Source: Pelomyxa schiedti (lineage: Eukaryota; Protista; Evosea). Taken from it: a DNA stretch of 64,000 nucleotides. Made by a program: the position numbers and the translations under genes. The stretch spans positions 1-64,000 of the forward strand of contig JAHLWZ010000831.1 of NCBI GenBank assembly GCA_020536535.1. Reading direction: 5' to 3'. The notes beneath the pieces were generated by a model, which made no database searches, was not told the origin of the DNA, and saw nothing but the letters and a program-made list of their open reading frames with translations. Numbering within the stretch: position 1 is the stretch's first letter; every line of letters starts with the position of its first letter. This document shows, piece by piece, positions 9,823 to 51,413 of this stretch.

Positions 9823-11506
9823 ATGTCGCACCGCAAGTACGAAGGTCGGTTCCGTTGGCCTTTACGTCGTTTATACCGTCGCTTGTTTAGCGACTTTTAT
9901 TGTCCGTAACACACCTTACTTACACGCCCTTAGCCCCCAGACATGGATCCCTGGCCTTCTTGCCACGCAAGCGCAGCAACAGGCAACGTGGACGCAGTAC
10001 GTTTTTTTTTTTTACATTTCAGCACACGCGTATGTGGATTAATGGGTGTTTATAGTCAGGCACTTCCCTAAAGACAACCGCGCCACAAGACCCCACTTCA
10101 CCGGTTTCGTCGGTTTCAAGGCGGGTATGACCCACGTTGTCAGGGAACTGAACAAGCCCGGATCAAGTAACCGCCTCTTTTGCTAATTTTTTCCTCTTGA
10201 TGACCGACTGTCTTTTTCAGAGATGCACAAGAAGGAGGTTCTCGAGTCTGTCTCCATTCTTGAGACACCACCCATGATTGTTGTTGGCTTGGTTGGCTAC
10301 AGAAACACAGTCAAGGGACTCAGGAACATCAAGACTGTCTGGGCAAATCACCTCAGCGACGATCTCCTCCGCAATTTCTACCGCAAGTGGCAAGACTCCA
10401 AGAAAAAGGCCTTCTCCAAGTACGCTCTCCGCTACGTCGGCAACCGAGCCCGCGTCAACAAAGACATCGAATACATTAAATCACACGCGGATGTTGTCAG
10501 GGCCATCTGCCACACACAGCAACACAAACTCCCCATGCTCGAGCGAAAGAAGTCACACATCATTGAAATTCAGGTATCCCGCGAACTTTCCTGGTTCTGC
10601 AAGTTAACGCTTATTTTTTAGATCAACGGTGGTACAGTTCGCGAAAAGGTTTCCTTCGCCCTGAACTTCTTCGAGAAGGAGCTGAAGATCAACCAAGTCT
10701 TCGCACAGAACGAGGTCATCGACATCATGGGAGTCACCAAGGGTAAAGGATTCCAAGGAGTCACCAAGCGATGGGGAACAGCCCGACTGCCCAGGAAGAC
10801 GCACAAGGGTCTCAGAAAGGTCGCTTGTATCGGAGCATGGCATCCAGCCCGTGTCTCGTATGCCGTGGCCCGCGCCGGTCAAATGGGTTGCCACCACCGT
10901 GTTGAGATGGGCAAGAAGATCTTCAGGCTCGGAGTTGCTGCCAAGCAGCTGGTCGACGAGAGCTTGGAGGGAGTTGTAAAGGAGGAAGCCAAGGAGCTGT
11001 CCAAGAAGGAGGCGGCCAAGGCCCGCGAGGCAGCAAAGGCCAAGGAGAAGGAAGAGGCCGAGAAGAAGAGGGCGGAGGGAGCAGCCGCAGCAGCGCCCGC
11101 GGCACCGGCGGAGAAGAAGATGGTCTTGAAGATGGTCGACAACCGAAACGCCAAGACCGACTACGATCTCACCACCAAGCCAATCACCCCAATGGGAGGC
11201 TTCCCACACTACGGCATTGTCAAGAACGACTTCATCATGGTCAAGGGTTCAGTCATTGGCCCCAAGAAGAGGGCTCTCACACTCCGCAAGGCCATGTTCC
11301 CGTGCGCCAAGCGATGGGCACTCGAGGAAATCTCCCTCAAGGTAGGCATCTCATTTTCTTTTCCCTTCACAACTGGCTAACTTGGGTACCAGTTCATCGA
11401 TACATCAAGCAAGATGGGCAGCGGCAGATGGCAGACCTCAGAGGAAAGGAAGAAGTACCTCGGCCCAATGAAGCCAAGGCGCAAAGCACCAGCCCACCGC
11501 TCTTAA
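9823..11506 (+). CDS. RPL3: 60S ribosomal protein L3 (uL3), multi-exon
   Basis: MSHRKYE|[77 protein letters not shown]. Confidence 0.98.
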
Positions 11507-26598: not shown

Positions 26599-27845
26599 AT
26601 GGGTATCTCCCGTGACTCGCGCCACAAGCGCAGAAATACTGGTGGCCAGCGCAAGCCCTACCGCAAGAAGAGGTATCGTATTTTTTCCACTGAATCGTTT
26701 ACCTTTTTTTCGGTTGTTTTGTTTTGTAGCATTTTCCCTGGGGTGAATGTGTTGGGCTGCTTGACCTGTTATTTTTTATTAATACCCGACACACAACAGA
26801 AAATATGAAATGGGTCGCCAGCCATCCAACACTAAAATCGGGCCCAAGAGAGTTCACTTGGTACGATGCATGGGAGGCATCATCAAGAAAAGAGGGCTCC
26901 GCCTTGAGACAGGAAGCTTTTCTTGGGGCTCAGAGGGTATGCCTTGCATATGCTTTTGCTTTTTTGGTCACCGTGTGTCTAGCCATTTCACGCAAGTCTC
27001 GCATTGTCAACTGTGTTTACAACTCTGCAAATGTCGAGTACGTTCGCACCAACACACTCACCAAGAGCGCCATCATCCAAGTCGAAGCAGCTCCTTTCCG
27101 TTTCTGGTACATGCAACACTACGGCGTTGACCTGAACAAGATCCCCAAGGCAGCCAAGGTTGAGGAGAAGGCCGCCAAGAAGCCCAAGGAGAAGGCCGCC
27201 GAGAAGCCCAAGGAAAAGGCCGCCGAGAAGCCAAAGGAGAAAGCTGCTGCCAAGCCCAAGGAGAAAGCAGCCGAGAAGCCCAAAGAGAAGGCCGCTGAGA
27301 AGCCCAAGGAGAAGGCTGCTGCCAAGAAAGAGAAGGGCGAGAAGGCCGCTGAAAAGCCCAAGGAGAAGGCTGCCGCCAAGGGCAAGGCTGAGAAGGGCAA
27401 GACCGAGGAGAAAGCCGCCAAGGGCAAGGGCAAGGTCGCACACACCCTCGCTGATAAGGCCGGAAAAGTACCCGCTAAGGGATCGAAGGAAGAGAAGCGC
27501 TTGAGAATCAGGCAGAAGGAGGCCGCTAAGCGCCACAAGGAAACCCACTGGATTGAGACACACACCGCAACTCCAGGGTAAGCCCCGTTTTCTTCCTCCA
27601 TTCACCCGGTCATCATTTTCTTACAATTAATTAGGGAGAAGAAAATGTACGCCGCAAGACTTCTGCACCACACCATCGATGCCGGCCTTGCAGAGCAGTT
27701 TTCTTCCGGCAAATTGCTTGCCTGTGTGACATCCAGACCAGGACAGATTGGCCGCTGTGACGGATACCTCCTTGAGGGCGAGGAGCTCGAGTTCTACCTC
27801 AAGAAAATGGAGAAGAAGAAGAAGGGAGCTGCCCAGGGAAAATAA
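26599..27845 (+). CDS. RPS8: 40S ribosomal protein S8 (eS8), multi-exon, with a long KPKEKAAE-repeat insertion
   Basis: [60 protein letters not shown]. Confidence 0.98.
27163..27430 (+). repeat. 24-bp coding tandem repeat (AAGCCCAAGGAGAAGGCCGCCGAG)
   Basis: About 7 near-exact KPKEKAA(E/A) units plus degenerate copies. Confidence 0.9.
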
Positions 27846-28007
27846 ACTTCCAACCAACACTTGGTTTTTTTTTCCGGCTATCACTATTGTTGTTCTTGAA
27901 CAAATTATCTACCCTTTTCTTTGTCTGTTTACTTCTATCCCCCATCATGCAGGCAGAGTCCTCGTATTTTCAAAGATTAAAAAAGAAAAGCGTGCAGCCG
28001 AACTTCT

Positions 28008-28609
28008 TTACAATGAAATTTCCTTCTTGTCCAGTGCGGGCATGAGAGAAGGGTTACTTTGAAAAAGGAGCTCCTTCACGGACTGGTAGTCGTGCTCTCC
28101 GAGAAGAAAGTTCTGCACCACATTAATTCCAGCAATGTTGTACTTGGATTGTTGTCGTGTGCGTTCTTTCCACCACATTTTGTCCAGAATTAGAGGCTTG
28201 TATTTGCTGCCCGTAGTTGGGTCGTCTATGGTCTGAAGAGAGTAAAAAAAAAAAAAAAAGGCAGAAAGTCGGGACAGCGGCACACCTGGAAGAATGCGGA
28301 CACTTCTTCGAAGTTCTTATTTGGTTTGAGCCAATACACCAACCCTTCTTGCTCTTTCTGCAGTATCAAGTCCTTGAATCTGGGGCTGAAATCGAGGTAC
28401 CTCGTGGGCTGACGTCTCGACGCCGCTTCTTCGGCCGGGGTACGAGGGAAAACCCAAGACCTGTCACTGCCAAAGAAAAAGATTGACTGCCGCATGACAT
28501 CCTCAGGAATGGCGGTATAGAACTTGGATAGGTACGACGCCGAGATCCACACAACACGCCGTCCTCCATTTGAAGTAATTGCGGCGTCACTCGTTGTAGC
28601 CGCACTCAT
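28008..28609 (-). CDS. Small hypothetical protein (2 exons)
   Basis: MSAATTSD...EVSAFFQ joins TIDDPTTG...DKKEISL* through a GT-AG intron with a poly-T tract. Confidence 0.6.
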
Positions 28610-28705: not shown

Positions 28706-31549
28706 ATGGAGGTGGCGTTGGAGAAGTTGTATGAGCTATGGTCAGCCGGGATTATTTCAGAAGAGGAGTACCATCTGCGCAAAGAGGCACTGCATAGAGA
28801 GTATGTCCTCTCATTTTTTACGAAGTTGTTGCTTTTTTTTTCTTGTTTTTTTGTCTTGTCCATTTCTTCTCTAACTTTTTCTTCACCCTTGGCAGATTTA
28901 ACGTTTGTTCTAAACCATTTACTAACACAAAGAAAACAAAGTGTCTCATAGACATCGATTAATTGAAGTGCAGGTGGCGGAATCTTCTACTACTGTGACT
29001 CCTAGTACCACAGCCACTACATCCACATCGACAACACAACCTGAGTACTCTGAAGTTGATGCCCTGAGAGAGGTAGAGGCGGACGCTCGCATGAGAACAG
29101 CTTCATGCTTGCCATTACCTTTTTCTGCTGCTCTTCTGCATCACTGTTGTGGAAATGGTCCTGACGCTACGCAATTTTCGTTTGGCTCATATATTCCTTT
29201 TCAGCTTCAAGTACTCAAAGTGCCGCCTCTACTCAATGTGACCCTTTGCCAGTGGGCCCGATATCTGCAGAAGATGCTGAAAGCCGCGTACTGCGCGCAG
29301 TGCAGATCTGTGCTGGAGATTTTGCCGCATTGAGTTTAAAAACGAAAGTTCCCTGCATGTGCCCAACTGCTCGTGTGGCAATGAATCTGACTGACACTGC
29401 CTTCTCTCTTACTTCATTACAATACATTCTGGAGGAAATGGGAAAAGAAACTGCCCGAAAGAAGGAGGAGGAGGAAAGGGAGCGCGCAAAACGAGAAATA
29501 GAAGAAGAACGACGTGTAGTGGAAGAAGAAGCATCAAGGTATAGTGAATATGTATTGGAGGTACTAACAAATCCCACAGAGCGATACAGGAGTTAACTAC
29601 ACAAAAAGAATCGTTAAATGCAAAGATTGCTGAGCTTGAAGAGGCTGTAGAAGATTTTGAGGCCAATGAGTACCCTAAATTGAAGGTTTTTCCATCAAAT
29701 TCGTCAAATCAATTTTGAAAATTGCTTACCACAGGAACAATACCGCACTGATAACTTCCTGGCACCGGGCTTACATGTTACCTTTTTACCCGAATTCTCA
29801 GCTGTAGAGAGTTCGAGAATAGAGATGAAAGTTCTTGTAGAAGCGAAGGTTCAGTCCCATTTACTAAAGATATTCCCTCAGTTAAGCTATCATCCTAGGT
29901 TGGCCAACAATCAAAAACTGCCACCGTAAAACGGGCTCCATTTGAATTGGCCATTGCTTTAGATGTGTCTGGTAGTATGGAGGGGGACCCCCTTGGTTTG
30001 TCCCTTGCACTGTTCAGAGTCCAATGTCACCATCAATAGAAAACTCTAAGAACTCTATCCTCAAGATCATTAAGTTACTCCAAGAAGGCGATATTCTGCA
30101 TGTTGTTACCTACGCTGATTATGCCAAAGTGATTTTTCAAGAAGGCAAAGTCCATACAGAAAGTACCCTCAAAAACAAGTTTTATCCACTCCTAAATTTC
30201 ACAGGTGACAGACAGCAACTTTCTGAGAAAGTATCTCGGATATGCACTGAGGGGTCCACAAATATTTCCGCCGGTTTCCTCCATCCTGTTATCAATATTT
30301 AAAGCATTCACCTCCTTTTGCCAGGGCTCCAGGCTGCGTATGGTCTATTTTCGAAGAACAGTAAAAATAAGAGGGTATTCCTGTTCTCTGATGGCGGCGC
30401 AAATGAGGGAATAACGGATGTTGCCTCTATGAATAAACTGGTTGGTGAAGCCTACAACACCCGAGGAATTTCCACCACTTCATTTGGCATTGGTCCACAC
30501 TACAATCTGGTACATACAGCCTTTCATTTTTTTGCAAAATAACACAAAGTAAGGAAATGATGAAAGGAATTTCTGACAGTGGCCATGGTCTTTACTTCTT
30601 CATAGATTCGATTGAATCCATAGGAAAACTAATCGATAAAGGCATGCGTGGCCTTACATCATTGTTCGGTACTGTGTCACAAACTTCCCACCCATAAATT
30701 CGTCTTAAATTAAACAACAAGGAATCGATGCCGAACTTCACATTAGACCAAGGAGCCCCCCATGTCACTCAATGAAGCTCGGAGTTGGCAGTAAAGAAAC
30801 GCTGACTCCCCCATCTGGGTCCACGACAACCACAGCGGCTAATACAATCGACATACCGGTAGGCGACCTCCGCCACGAAGATCTGAAGCAATTGCTGTTT
30901 GATGCAGAATTTGACTTCTCTGGCAACTACCCTGGTTCCTCCCTCTGGGTGTTGGATTGGGATATGGCATACACTGAAGTTGTGAATGGCGAATTTGGAG
31001 GCAGAGCCACCCAAAGAGGCTCGCTATCAATGAGCATTGATGCCACAAGATCAGAGCACAACAAGCAAGTCCGCTCCTTGTCCGTGATACGGGCCTGTGC
31101 TCTCCAGGTTAAAATTCACTCTGCAGCCAATGCTAAATGAAAAACTTACCACCCCAAAGGAGGCCCAGATATACGAGCTCGTACGCACCAATAACTTCAC
31201 AGAAGCAGCTCACCTCAAGGAAGAAATATTAGCGCAGCTCACCTCTGTTGAAGAGGACGACCCCTACGGATTTGTAAAGATCCTCGTCAACAAAGGCAGG
31301 AAAGTGCTCTGTGACTACCAGCGCCTGGCCGTAGACAAGCTCATCGCCAGTCACAACGAGACCATGCAGCGACGCATTCGGGAATTGAATACAAGACTGC
31401 GAGCACTTGATGTGCAAACTGTTGCCGAACCTGTCATGCTGAGGGAGGAAAGGAGGTCCACCAAGTGCGGGGAGTTGCTGGCCAAAGAAGCCCACAGAAA
31501 GATGGAAGAGGAGGCTGACTGTGACATGGGTTTCGGCCTGTTTGACTAA
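28706..31549 (+). CDS. SHOCT / coiled-coil / vWA protein with a C-terminal P-stalk-like DMGFGLFD motif
   Basis: N-terminal LEKLYELWSAGIISEEEYHLRKEAL; vWA motifs LDVSGSM, GSTNISAG, FLFSDGGAN, TTSFGIG; C-terminus EEEADCDMGFGLFD*. Confidence 0.85.
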
Positions 31550-31993
31550 ATAATCGATGTGTTTTTCCCGCCACACGAAACAGCCTTGGGCGCAGAATTC
31601 CTGTTTGGACTTTGTTCTCTAAAGAATTGTCTGGAAAAAGAATTGTCTGGAAAATCTAATTTTTTTTTTATAGTCTATTCTCATTCAAACAGTTGCTGAC
31701 TTTTAGGTGGTGCAGGTATTTGTAGAAGTGGTTCAAGTTGAGCCGTGGCAAGAGGCTTCCAAAAGCTGCACAAAATCACGTCAGTAACGGAAAGAAAACT
31801 AAACAGGCAAACCGTAATTACTTGGGCTAATAGCAAGAAAAGACTACGTTAAAGAACAGTCTCAGCTCAGAAAACGAAGTGGCGCATCTCAAACTTAGAA
31901 ACCAGTCATCAGATGAAAGATGTAAAAAAGAACTACCTGTTTGTCGAAGGCAGCAACACAGGGGAGGAAAAAAAAAAAAACGATAAAAAAAAA

Positions 31994-48157: not shown

Positions 48158-51100
48158 TTACTGGGGAGAAGGACTTATGGATTAATGGACTGTACTGTAT
48201 AGTTATTGATGTATCTGGATCAATGAATGATGAAGCTGTTTTGCCTGGAAAAGGAGCCGATACGGAGTAGGCACTAATGCAGTTTTTTTTGCGTGTCACT
48301 AACTCTTTCAGGGTTCATGGACTCTCGGTACTAGACATTGTGAAGCACTCTGTGAAGACCATCATTCAGACTTTGTCTCCACATGATAGCATTTCTATTG
48401 TGTCTTATTCCACGAATGCTAAGATAGAACTTCCTCTCACGGTTACTGACGATGCGGGGAAAGAAACCGCCAATCGTGCACTTATGGCATTGGTTCCAGA
48501 AGGCCAAACCAATTTATGGGTATGCATAGACCCTCCCCACTGCACCTGTAACATAAAAAAGGAAGGACTGAAAACGGGACTTGATATTATGAGAGAAGCA
48601 GGACGGGGTGCCAGGGCCAGCTCCATTATGCTCCTTACTGATGGAATGCCCAATATTGTTCCACCTGGTGGGCATTTTGCTGCACTTGCTGAATACCGTG
48701 CAAAATACACCAACATTCCTGCAGTGATCAACACATTTGGGTGTGTAGAGTCTTAGAAGTATCTTGCTTACCTTTCATAGGTTTGGTTACACATTGGACA
48801 GCAAGTTGCTTATTGATCTTGCTGTCGAGGGAAATGGTTCTTATGCCTTTATTCCCGACAGCTCATTTGTTGGTACAATTTTTGTAAATTCACTCAGTAA
48901 CCTGCTTGCCACAATGGCAACTGAAGCACAACTGCTTCTTCATCCCCTGAATGGCGCAACAATAGTTGGAATACCTGGGATCACTCAGTCTTCAAGTGGA
49001 ACAGAAACAGTTGATGATTCCCCTCACGATGTACAGCTGGACCTTGTTTTTATTGTGGATTGCACTGGAAGCATGAGTTCCTATATTCGCGAAGCTCAGC
49101 AAAATATCAAGTCAATTGTTACTCAGATTGTAACCTCAGAACGAGCTGACGTTAGGGTTAGTGATCCCGGAAATCCAAAAACGACTCACACTTTTTCAGT
49201 TTGGCCTTGTTTCTTACCGTGATCATCCACCACAAGATTCATCATACATAACAAAAGTCTTTCCATTCTGTTCCACTCAGGCTGAGATGAAAGACGCAGT
49301 TGACACCATGTCTGCTAGTGGCGGAGGAGATGGCCCCGAAGCACTGGCTACTGGGATGCGTGACGCAGCGAGATTGGAATTCCGCCCTGCCGCTACAAAG
49401 GTGGCTGTACTTATTACAGATGCCCCTCCTCATGGTTTGGGTGAGAGTGGTGATGGGTTCCCTGATGGCGAGCCAAACGGCGTTGATCCATTGGCAGTTT
49501 CCCGTGAAATGGCGGCCGCCGGTATTGCACTCTATAGTGTCGGGTGTGAACCAGCCATAGTGAGCTGCGGACGAGCTGTAGCATTCATGCGGGCGATCGC
49601 ACAAATGGCCAATGGAGGGAAATACATTCCATTGAGAGATTCACGCCTTTTGAGTACTGCCATTATTGGTAGCTGCCGTGAAGAACTGTGTCTATATCGC
49701 TCAGCTTTGGCCATTCTCAACGCCTACCAAGCAAACCACGAAAACGTTGAAGCTACCGTGGCACAGATGAATAAAGAGGGTGTATTTGTGACAACACTCA
49801 ATTTTGAGGACCCTGATGCAACAAGATACGCAAGTGAAGTGGAAGCGTTCATTTCATCACCTAATCTTGGGGAAGCCCGTTCAAAGTTAAAGAGTGTTTC
49901 GAAACCTGCCAGTGCTTCTGCAGGCTCCGCGACAGTCAAAGTTGCGGAAGGAGAGCCTATTACACCCGATCTAGTTAGGCGTGTCGTAAAGCGCTATATG
50001 CCGGAATATAGCAAGCTAGTAGCACAAGCACTCGCTGCTGAACAGAGAGCAGCCCAGGCTCGCGCCCAGGCAGCACTAAAGCGGAAGGGTCTTCAAGCAG
50101 ATTCTCGAGGGTGTATTGTTCTTGATCACATTGGATCCCTCCAATACGGGCAAACAAAGGACGTTGTAGTACTACTCGATCATATGCCTTCTTCTTCACC
50201 CTATCTGGAAGTAACTCTTCGCCATAGCACCACCTCTGCCGCCGCACACGAAGTTGCCGCTACCGGCACAAGGCGAGATGCAGGTGCAGAGTTGGTTCTC
50301 CAAGAATGCCGTGCAAGATTAGTGGATGTTATAGGACAAGCCATGGAGGCAGTAGAAACTGGCAAAGGTGAAGCCGGCATTGCTGCCGCTCAGGATATCA
50401 TAAAACAACTCGAAAAGAGTTTCCTGGAGCGGCTTGAAACTCTTACACCAGAGGATTCCCCGAAGTTGGATTCCATGATACAAGATATTCAAGGACAAAT
50501 CACCGAGGCAACTTCCCGCATTGATTGGTATACACGGTGGGGTGTTCACTTCCTGCCATCCCTTGCAAGGGCACACTCTCTCCAGCTGTGCAATAACTTC
50601 AAAGTATCGCATTCAAATCCTCAGAGTTGCATCTCACCTTTTTTTTTTTTTTTTTTTAAATAGGATCCTGGCGTACAACAATATGGTGGCGCCGTGTTTT
50701 CCGAACAACGCGACGCGGCCGAAGCCATTTTCATCAAGCAGCCAGCGCCACCGCCCTCGCTCCTTCCCCCCAAAGTCGAACCGGCCTCAACGGCAACTGC
50801 CGGCACTTATACTGCGTCGTCACCCTCCTATGAACCAGCGGGCTATGACATGTCCTGCTACTATGACAGCTGCAGCGGCTGCGTGAGCAGCGGCTCGCTC
50901 GTTTTCCTGGACGGCGGCGCGAAGAAGCCCGCGTGCTGCATTCGCAAGGGCGACGTCGTCCTCACTTCCCTGAGCGGCGAGACGGCCGAAGTCAAGTGCG
51001 TGGTCAAGATGGTGTGCGAGACAGGCGTCGAGAGCCTCGTGCAGCTGAGCGGGGGCCTGGGCATTACATCCTACCACCCAGTCCACATCAGGGGCGAGTG

Positions 51101-51413
51101 GGTGTTCCCGTGCCAGGTGGAAAAGCCCACGTACAAGCCCTGCGACGCTGTATACAGCTTCGTTCTGGAGAGCAACAGCCGGGGCTCCGTCGTCGTCGGC
51201 GGGATAGAGTGCGCGTCCCTGGCGCACGGGATTGTGGGAGACAGGCGGGAGCACGCGTACTTTGGCACCGCCGCGGTGACAGAAGACCTAAAAAAGGCCG
51301 ACCCTGTTGGCTGGCAATCTGGGAGCGTGACCATTGGCGGGAACATGCGCTTCGTGCGCCGTTGCTCTGATGACCTGGTCTGTGGCTTGGTCCCTGTGTC
51401 CATTGCAGAATGA
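47938..51413 (+). CDS. Vint-type protein: vWA - inserted second vWA - Vwaint - Hint
   Basis: vWA1 IDVSGSM, GQTNLW, LLTDGMPN; vWA2 LDLVFIVDCTGSM, YRDHPPQD, GGGDGPEA; Vwaint WYTRWGVHFLPSL...CNNFK|DPGVQ; Hint G-CVSSGSLV...ITSYHPV...VYSFVL...CASLAHG. Confidence 0.9.

Follow-up and report, generated by a model that had tools for sequence, protein, structure and literature searches.

A stalk tail on a vWA scaffold

The Pelomyxa schiedti gene at positions 28706-31549 encodes a vWA scaffold that ends in a copy of the ribosomal P-stalk tail and, as judged from comparison of relatives, this tail is conserved across eukaryotic supergroups. Coordinates are given on the forward strand, on which all features described here lie, of the window, the whole 64,000-nucleotide stretch of DNA that was analysed. 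The gene is spliced, and a protein search retrieved its deposited product, KAH3756168.1, of 734 aa and 13 exons; the database name of this entry, "Protein lifeguard 2", is wrong, no such family being detected by Pfam. An alternative model of the same gene comprises 739 aa in 12 exons, with a single first intron at 28801-28951.

Support for the gene structure was obtained from three single-cell RNA runs, all derived from one sample in one study. RNA contig X2 (1880 nt) spans 29300-31586 and, through nine GT-AG introns, connects the coiled coil to the vWA exons and continues past the stop; contig X3 (1803 nt) spans 29399-31627 and likewise crosses nine GT-AG introns to beyond the stop. With the addition of an intron at 29158-29204 from a third contig, X1, ten GT-AG introns are supported by RNA from 29158 on, and none of the RNA exon joints was present in a DNA run. 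The spliced reading frame is open as far as the tail, with the last-exon ORF terminating in KMEEEADCDMGFGLFD before a TAA stop at 31547-31549. Because the vWA exons and the last exon are carried together on individual RNA contigs, the tail belongs neither to another reading frame nor to a separate P-protein fragment, and both possibilities were ruled out. The region 28706-29045, including the SHOCT exon and the 5' introns, had no RNA cover at 95% or 80% likeness; such a hole in the contigs proves nothing. Two in-frame GT-AG models join the SHOCT exon to the rest of the gene, and an orthologue, P0151, likewise combines a SHOCT-like start with the tail in one protein, providing independent support for the same linkage in Pelomyxa. 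Thus, where the first-pass annotation had placed the last exon and the entire SHOCT-to-tail linkage in one gene, the stretch from vWA to tail is corroborated by X2 and X3, and the SHOCT exon lies outside the RNA cover. RPS8 is located two genes upstream, with no evidence linking the two genes.

The tail itself, EEEADCDMGFGLFD followed by the stop, occupies 31502-31549 and is supported by both the sequence and the RNA contigs. Its last eight residues, DMGFGLFD (31523-31546), are identical to the eukaryotic stalk consensus, described as SD[D/E]DMGFGLFD (PMC3280276). Departures from this consensus are limited to Ala for Ser at position -11 and Cys for Asp at position -9, and single alanines at these two positions are reported to keep binding near wild type (PMC3280276). 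Owing to the first of these substitutions, the tail lacks the phosphorylatable Ser at -11. A search of all six frames of the window with a loose P-tail pattern returned this tail as its only match, against a chance expectation of 3.5e-8 for DMGFGLFD plus stop across the same six frames. The tail also matched positions 66-88 of Pfam model PF00428, below the cut-off. With eight of eight consensus residues, exons joined by RNA and an intact MIDAS (see below), the original proposal that a P-stalk C-terminus is borne by a non-ribosomal MIDAS vWA protein is upheld.

Domain architecture and predicted fold

Pfam searches of the Pelomyxa protein identified SHOCT at residues 4-29 (under cut-off), vWA at 297-466 and Ribosomal_60s at 713-733, the last covering the tail only; no match was found by Pfam to RING or B-box, or to the VIT models PF08487 and PF13757 at E up to 0.1. 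The SHOCT-like helical hairpin (residues 4-29; 28715-28792; PF09851, E 8e-6) scored 25.9 bits alone and 19.7 bits in the full protein, relative to a Pfam cut-off of 27, and 13 of 29 residues of this start are identical in P0151. It is followed by a Ser/Thr-rich linker (residues 36-57; 28977-29042) that appears disordered (pLDDT <50) and by a long charged helix (residues 161-249; 29399-29755), predicted by AlphaFold with pLDDT mostly >90 and representing a probable coiled coil. Modelling and fold comparison further delineated a beta-sandwich (residues 255-295 and 475-581; 29771-31035) split by the vWA domain (residues 297-466; 29947-30637; PF00092, E 1.1e-17). All residues of the MIDAS DxSxS...T...D motif (D302, S304, S306, T372 and D399) are present and are invariant in a 54-row alignment, with the codons of D302, T372 and D399 located at 29962, 30258 and 30390, respectively. 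Beyond the core lie a C-terminal helical bundle (residues 591-690) and a last helix (708-721), together spanning 31063-31507.

The AlphaFold model built with 54 sequences reached a mean pLDDT of 77.6 and a pTM of 0.66; a single-sequence model (pLDDT 43.5) was not used. The former comprises the helical hairpin, a disordered region (37-160) with one helix at 117-131, the long helix at 161-249, the sandwich/vWA core and the bundle, followed by a tail (719-734) that was unplaced (pLDDT <50) and is thus modelled as flexible. The top four Foldseek matches corresponded to ArnB (8S05, two chains), the Catenulispora vWA protein (4FX5) and ArnE/vWA2 (5A8J), with E-values from 1.8e-20 to 1e-17, followed by ITIH1 and Sec23/24. 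The VIA comparison gave Z 24.7 with 4FX5 (372 residues, 3.5 A) and Z 24.2 with 8S05 (353 residues, 4.0 A); identities to proteins of the ArnB type are 12-16%. A split sandwich, MIDAS vWA and bundle are shared with ArnB and ArnE (vWA2) of Sulfolobus, a Catenulispora vWA protein, YfbK, WAV3 and Sec23/24. The ArnB architecture has been described together with its relatives YfbK, Sec23/24 and the plant WAV3 E3 ligases, and the end of the ArnB bundle is identified there as its partner-recruiting part (PMC12852372). On the basis of the model, the Pelomyxa protein belongs to the ArnB/YfbK/WAV3-type vWA fold family, its C-terminal bundle being the structural counterpart of ArnB's regulatory helical bundle. 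Whereas ArnB recruits an FHA partner (ArnA) through phospho-threonines, the Pelomyxa bundle ends in a stalk peptide; proteins of the ArnB type also lack the N-terminal SHOCT, coil and P0-like parts of the Pelomyxa protein.

Conservation of the tail across the family

To what extent relatives retain the tail was assessed from residues 255-734, for which three of 11 non-self matches covered >80% of the query, all three ending in DMGF[GA]LFD. A profile derived from these three retrieved many Mortierellaceae proteins, as well as an Eutreptiella protein ending in DCDMGFDLFC. Tail scores among the best 150 representatives from an exhaustive profile search were bimodal: eight of eight residues in 15, seven in five and six in eight, none with four or five, and at most three in the remaining 122. 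The prediction that orthologues would keep the tail was therefore borne out by 28 of the best 150 relatives with six to eight residues, a proportion that is not a prevalence because the search profile contained the tail. Tail-bearing relatives occur in Mortierellaceae, euglenids, another amoebozoan and Yasminevirus, in agreement with the earlier suggestion of a class rather than a one-off; named members include Nematostelium gracile, Peranema trichophorum and Yasminevirus GU-2018, whose protein carries a perfect tail and also ranked first among viral fold matches. SHOCT and the long coil are missing from most tail-bearing relatives, which measure 450-520 aa; the Mortierellaceae and Yasminevirus proteins are among them.

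Core identity to the Pelomyxa protein had a median of 31% among 25 relatives chosen for bearing tails of six to eight matching residues, 13 of which possess all eight. Retention of all eight residues at approximately 30% core identity in distant lineages requires purifying selection. Among Mortierellaceae-type sequences the exact eight residues were found in eight of 40, with 37 fitting the pattern D-x-G-[FYW]-x-[LIV]-[FY]-[DE]-stop and three not; tails of Mortierellaceae paralogues thus diversify with their length and pattern kept. These variants drop the acidic run, and a terminal Asp or Glu is found in all 26 distinct tails that match the pattern. At position -11, Glu occurs in 17 and Ser in five of 29 family tails. 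In several tails the last residue is Ala, Thr or Cys, and worn tails are present inside the tail-bearing clade. DNA scans recovered 14 viral vWA loci, none of which ends in the tail; tail patterns were also detected in viral contigs, at 2 and 39 loci without a vWA protein among them, and a Cys-variant pattern in metagenome contigs at a single locus that was not a tail.

A core-only FastTree phylogeny of 149 rows was constructed; 12 earlier proteins were offered in addition, and three very long proteins were excluded together with rows whose cores were short or lacked the motif. The tail label is clustered on this tree, requiring 10 changes compared with 27.6 upon shuffling (0 of 500 shuffles as low), and at least six of the 10 changes sit on starred branches. 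One clade of 38 rows (SH-like 92) takes in 28 of 30 tail rows. The Yasminevirus protein nests among eukaryotic or unnamed rows, and the Pelomyxa protein and P0151 fall outside the main tail clade, in a poorly resolved part of the tree. An AU test with 24 rows did not reject one tail clade (p 0.154). These trees leave room for one origin of the tail as well as for several.

Additional stalk parts in relatives

Beyond the features annotated at first pass, relatives were found to possess P0 and P1 bodies and RING/B-box modules, in addition to the giant-virus member. The closest relative found, P0151 (857 aa; 34% identity over 605 columns, E 1e-84), has the same extended third bundle helix as the Pelomyxa protein and contains a degenerate uL10 between SHOCT and coil, detected by Pfam RL10P_insert (36.8 bits, cut-off 29.1) and by four NCBIfam uL10 models. 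With a tail-free P0 profile P0151 obtained E 2.3e-14, the next of 235 targets reaching 0.38. Relative to one P0, and with domain boundaries that are our own estimate, P0151 is identical at 24 of 72 positions in domain II, at 19 of 110 before it (the rRNA-anchoring part) and at 18 of 90 after it. Domain II, which has been described as the GCN2-binding site of uL10 (PMC6919976), is hence the best-kept P0 part; domain I is poorly kept, with a gap where P0 has its GKNT motif. P0151 also carries the P0 spine.

RING and/or B-box matches were obtained in six of 20 scanned relatives, above the Pfam cut-off in three, and all six bear the tail. In four of these relatives, a segment preceding the vWA core was picked by eye, and a joint profile of the four recovered P1 stalk proteins in five of six PDB matches (search at E up to 10; best E 0.021). 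A P1/P2 profile ranked two of these members first, P0111 (E 2.9e-5) and P0098 (E 0.006). Pfam gave no relevant match for the four short segments, P1 being found by the joint profile only, and no match for the P0/P1-like stretch of P0099. Given that P0151 combines SHOCT with a degenerate P0/uL10 and that RING/B-box relatives possess a P1-like domain, the family copies several stalk parts; most tail-bearing members have neither a P0 nor a P1 body.

In the Pelomyxa protein, a candidate worn remnant of the P0/uL10 spine, the helices that bind P1/P2, was noted at residues 113-164 (29255-29410), in the place that the P0 spine occupies in P0151. Among about 700 windows scored with a P0-spine profile, residues 131-164 ranked first, 99 of 114,730 background windows scoring as high, and Val144-Pro145 lies in register with the Tyr-Pro loop of P0 described in PMC3326305. 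This likeness was spotted by eye before testing and the other four tests did not detect it: local alignment was not significant against 2000 shuffles, and neither phmmer on PDB, NCBIfam nor our own P0 profile produced a match. Pfam gave no match either, leaving the worn spine weakly supported. No match to the uL10 rRNA-binding domain or domain II was found in the Pelomyxa protein by Pfam, NCBIfam or our own profile, nor was it among the matches of the P1/P2 profile for the N-terminal dimerisation domain. The proposal that SHOCT serves as an oligomeriser presenting several tails is not supported: experiments in the paper defining SHOCT do not support oligomerisation (PMC3581485), and most tail-bearing relatives lack both SHOCT and the long coil. 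Multiple tail display, if any, would be likelier to arise from a P0 spine binding P1/P2 dimers, a route seen in P0151 and weak in the Pelomyxa protein.

Relation to known systems

With P0/uL10, P1 and P2 (PF00428, PF17777) the Pelomyxa protein has in common a free C-terminal acidic run and DMGFGLFD, a likeness that extends in relatives to uL10 domain II and spine (P0151) and to a P1-like dimerisation domain (P0098, P0111). Unlike these ribosomal proteins, it possesses a 560-residue coil and vWA module in place of the Ala-rich hinge, and has neither a detectable rRNA-binding domain nor Ser at -11. A cytoplasmic MIDAS vWA, a beta domain and C-terminal helices are also shared with the VIT-vWA proteins (VWA5A/BCSC-1, Dictyostelium Vwa1 and ITIH heavy chains). 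Dictyostelium Vwa1 is linked to a ubiquitin ligase through FbxwD (PMC10539598), the Pelomyxa protein differing in its lack of VIT; the term "ribosom" is absent from the main text of that paper. The Pelomyxa protein is consequently neither a P protein nor a VIT-vWA protein, nor is it itself a TRIM.

TRIM restriction factors and the integrated decoys of plant NLRs fuse a copy of a host target to a signalling or RING-B-box-coil module. The same decoy-fusion logic is seen in six relatives. There is no NLR or SPRY domain, the Pelomyxa protein has neither RING nor B-box, and the immune likeness is one of architecture. A published treatment of vWA conflict systems does not take up the stalk (PMC8195603). 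Within the literature searched, from which subscription journals were mostly absent, no paper was found on a tail-bearing vWA family, although supplements may list such architectures; likewise, the papers listed for DMGFGLFD included no non-ribosomal vWA protein. We consider the family, from its sequences, to be real and conserved; it joins a known scaffold to a known motif in a new way, and its function is a predicted one.

Proposed function of the tail

The P-stalk tail, also familiar as a lupus and Chagas epitope, has been regarded as a grip that only the ribosome offers to translation factors, GCN2 and ribosome-inactivating proteins. The Pelomyxa protein probably binds clients of the stalk, of whatever identity, off the ribosome. 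The isolated tail recruits translational GTPases and ABCE1 through hydrophobic residues and works on a foreign carrier, MBP-aP1 pulling down aABCE1 (PMC6125642); it takes part, with uL10 domain II, in GCN2 activation (PMC6919976, PMC11624264). It is further the docking site of ribosome-inactivating proteins, one of which is blocked by competing free tail peptides (PMC6162817). We tentatively favor, at somewhat short of even chances, a role for the gene product as a mimic of the stalk that, away from the ribosome, lures the stalk-targeting proteins of intruders as bait. The free, flexible tail would bind stalk clients, with selection exerted by toxins of intruders and effectors of symbionts or viruses more than by the cell's own factors. 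The vWA-MIDAS/bundle core might then relay the catch to a surveillance or ubiquitin response, and RING-bearing members could tag it with ubiquitin.

Bait is preferred because members integrate different, degenerate stalk parts, because some carry TRIM-like ligase modules, and because the tails of paralogues drift and a copy is present in a giant virus. Against it, Mortierellaceae tails such as DKGWSIYE would imitate the host stalk poorly, and the Pelomyxa protein itself lacks RING/B-box, with a P0 remnant that only one of five tests favours. The preference is also slight because host factors would bind the tail too: eEF1A and eEF2 are abundant, so that a regulatory role would account for these sequence features too. 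Such a role, as a housekeeping adaptor whose tail recruits the cell's own eEF1A, eEF2, eIF5B, ABCE1 or GCN2 off the ribosome, is the foremost alternative, albeit an unlikely one. Its clients would be buffered, relocated or ubiquitylated, and the virus would have taken the gene to steer host translation. The conservation of the tail fits this reading equally, host factors are expected to bind a tail that is intact (PMC6125642, PMC11624264), and the best-kept P0 part of P0151 is domain II. The excess of Glu over Ser at -11, moreover, resembles a fixed acidic state of the serine whose phosphorylation is known from ribosomal P proteins. Add-on domains that vary and degenerate, and the drift of paralogue tails, are less typical of housekeeping, however, as is the patchy distribution of named members (amoebozoans, euglenids, Mortierellaceae and one virus).

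The Mortierellaceae variants, which maintain exact length, aromatic pattern and terminal acid in the absence of the acidic run, would also fit a tail that folds in cis onto the vWA/MIDAS or bundle of the same protein and inhibits it as a pseudo-ligand, until the domain meets its true ligand, which might be the ribosomal stalk. Acidic residues are bound by MIDAS sites, and auto-inhibition by a C-terminal domain has been proposed for Dictyostelium Vwa1 (PMC10539598). We regard this arrangement as distinctly improbable: AlphaFold left residues 719-734 unplaced at low pLDDT, the tails ending in Ala, Thr or Cys lack a terminal acid, and a private latch need not match the ribosomal consensus across supergroups. 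The P1-like N-terminal domains of RING/B-box members would fit a further reading, in which members dock in the real stalk, through pairing of a P1-like domain with P2 or through a P0-like body, and deliver vWA and RING to the site where factors bind on a specialised or stalled ribosome. P1/P2 dimers do exchange with a free pool and bind the P0 spine helices (PMC3326305). Incorporation of this kind is nevertheless improbable, as the Pelomyxa protein has no P1 domain and the reading fits only P1-bearing members, domain I of P0151 is poorly kept with its gap at the GKNT motif, and most tail-bearing members possess neither body. Finally, a neutral relic of an old P-protein gene fusion, to which a decaying P0-like part in the Pelomyxa lineage and worn tails inside the tail-bearing clade might attest, or a chance likeness, is largely refuted by conservation (identity at eight of eight residues with a core identity of approximately 30%, and the chance expectation given above) and is very improbable indeed.

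Extending the bait reading, the family might constitute an undescribed surveillance system of microbial eukaryotes, in which vWA receptors use integrated stalk copies (the tail, uL10 domain II and spine, and the P1 dimerisation domain) as bait and pass the catch to TRIM-like ubiquitin ligases, and of which giant viruses captured a ligase-less version; we view this extension as possible but doubtful. If true, an integrated decoy that guards the translation machinery would exist outside plants and animals. The conserved display of the tail away from the ribosome would provide the first natural eukaryotic off-ribosome stalk mimics found in the literature searched. It opens to direct test the means by which protists and soil fungi protect or adjust translation, and a route by which a giant virus may gain access to elongation factors or GCN2 of its host. 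Among culturable fungi, the Mortierellaceae have members that are compact and can be aligned.

Stalk-like tails in viral contigs and bacterial assemblies

DNA scans for stalk-tail patterns identified a 95-residue ORF in a viral contig (L001:3740-4027, +), terminating in SSSSDDMGFGLFD directly before the stop codon; the same ORF, with the same SSSSDDMGFGLFD ending, was found in a second viral contig (L002). A Pfam scan of this ORF returned neither a P1/P2 nor a vWA match, and its product is, from its sequence, possibly another stalk mimic, of viral origin. Among nine genome-contig matches, six (L020-L025) correspond to eukaryotic P0, P1 or P2 sequences, all on short contigs of bacterial assemblies, and probably represent contamination. 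Also identified were a 214-residue ORF in a Chlamydiia MAG contig (L019:809-1453, +; C-terminus DSDEDDMGFGLFD) and a 276-residue ORF in an Allosphingosinicella MAG (L026:388-1218, -; C-terminus DDDDQEEDGGDMGFALFD), each ending at a stop codon and neither assigned to a Pfam family by Pfam scan. The product of the former is a candidate stalk mimic from a bacterium living inside cells, its origin following the MAG bin assignment.

Domain exchange and genomic context of the vWA gene

Three tail-less relatives of the Pelomyxa vWA protein (P0162, P0214 and P0043) possess SH2-like domains, scoring slightly under cut-off, or U-box domains; the scaffold thus exchanges signalling and ligase modules widely. 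The window contains a further vWA gene at 49134-51413 (+), whose product combines a vWA domain with Vwaint and Hint (Vint) domains.

A 579-nt DNA contig, less than 90% alike, matches window positions 28878-28991 and 29272-29356, skipping the 280 bases between; it represents the 5' part of the main gene (28706-31549, +) in a second, diverged form, either another copy or an allele. A small spliced gene (27927-28569, -) is arranged head to head with the main gene, their start codons approximately 140 bases apart. Long Lys/Glu/Ala-rich inserts were observed in two genes which we take, from their sequences, to be RPS8 (26600-27845, +) and RPL3 (10622-11380, +); that of the putative RPS8 comprises KEKAAEKP repeats within an RNA-supported exon.
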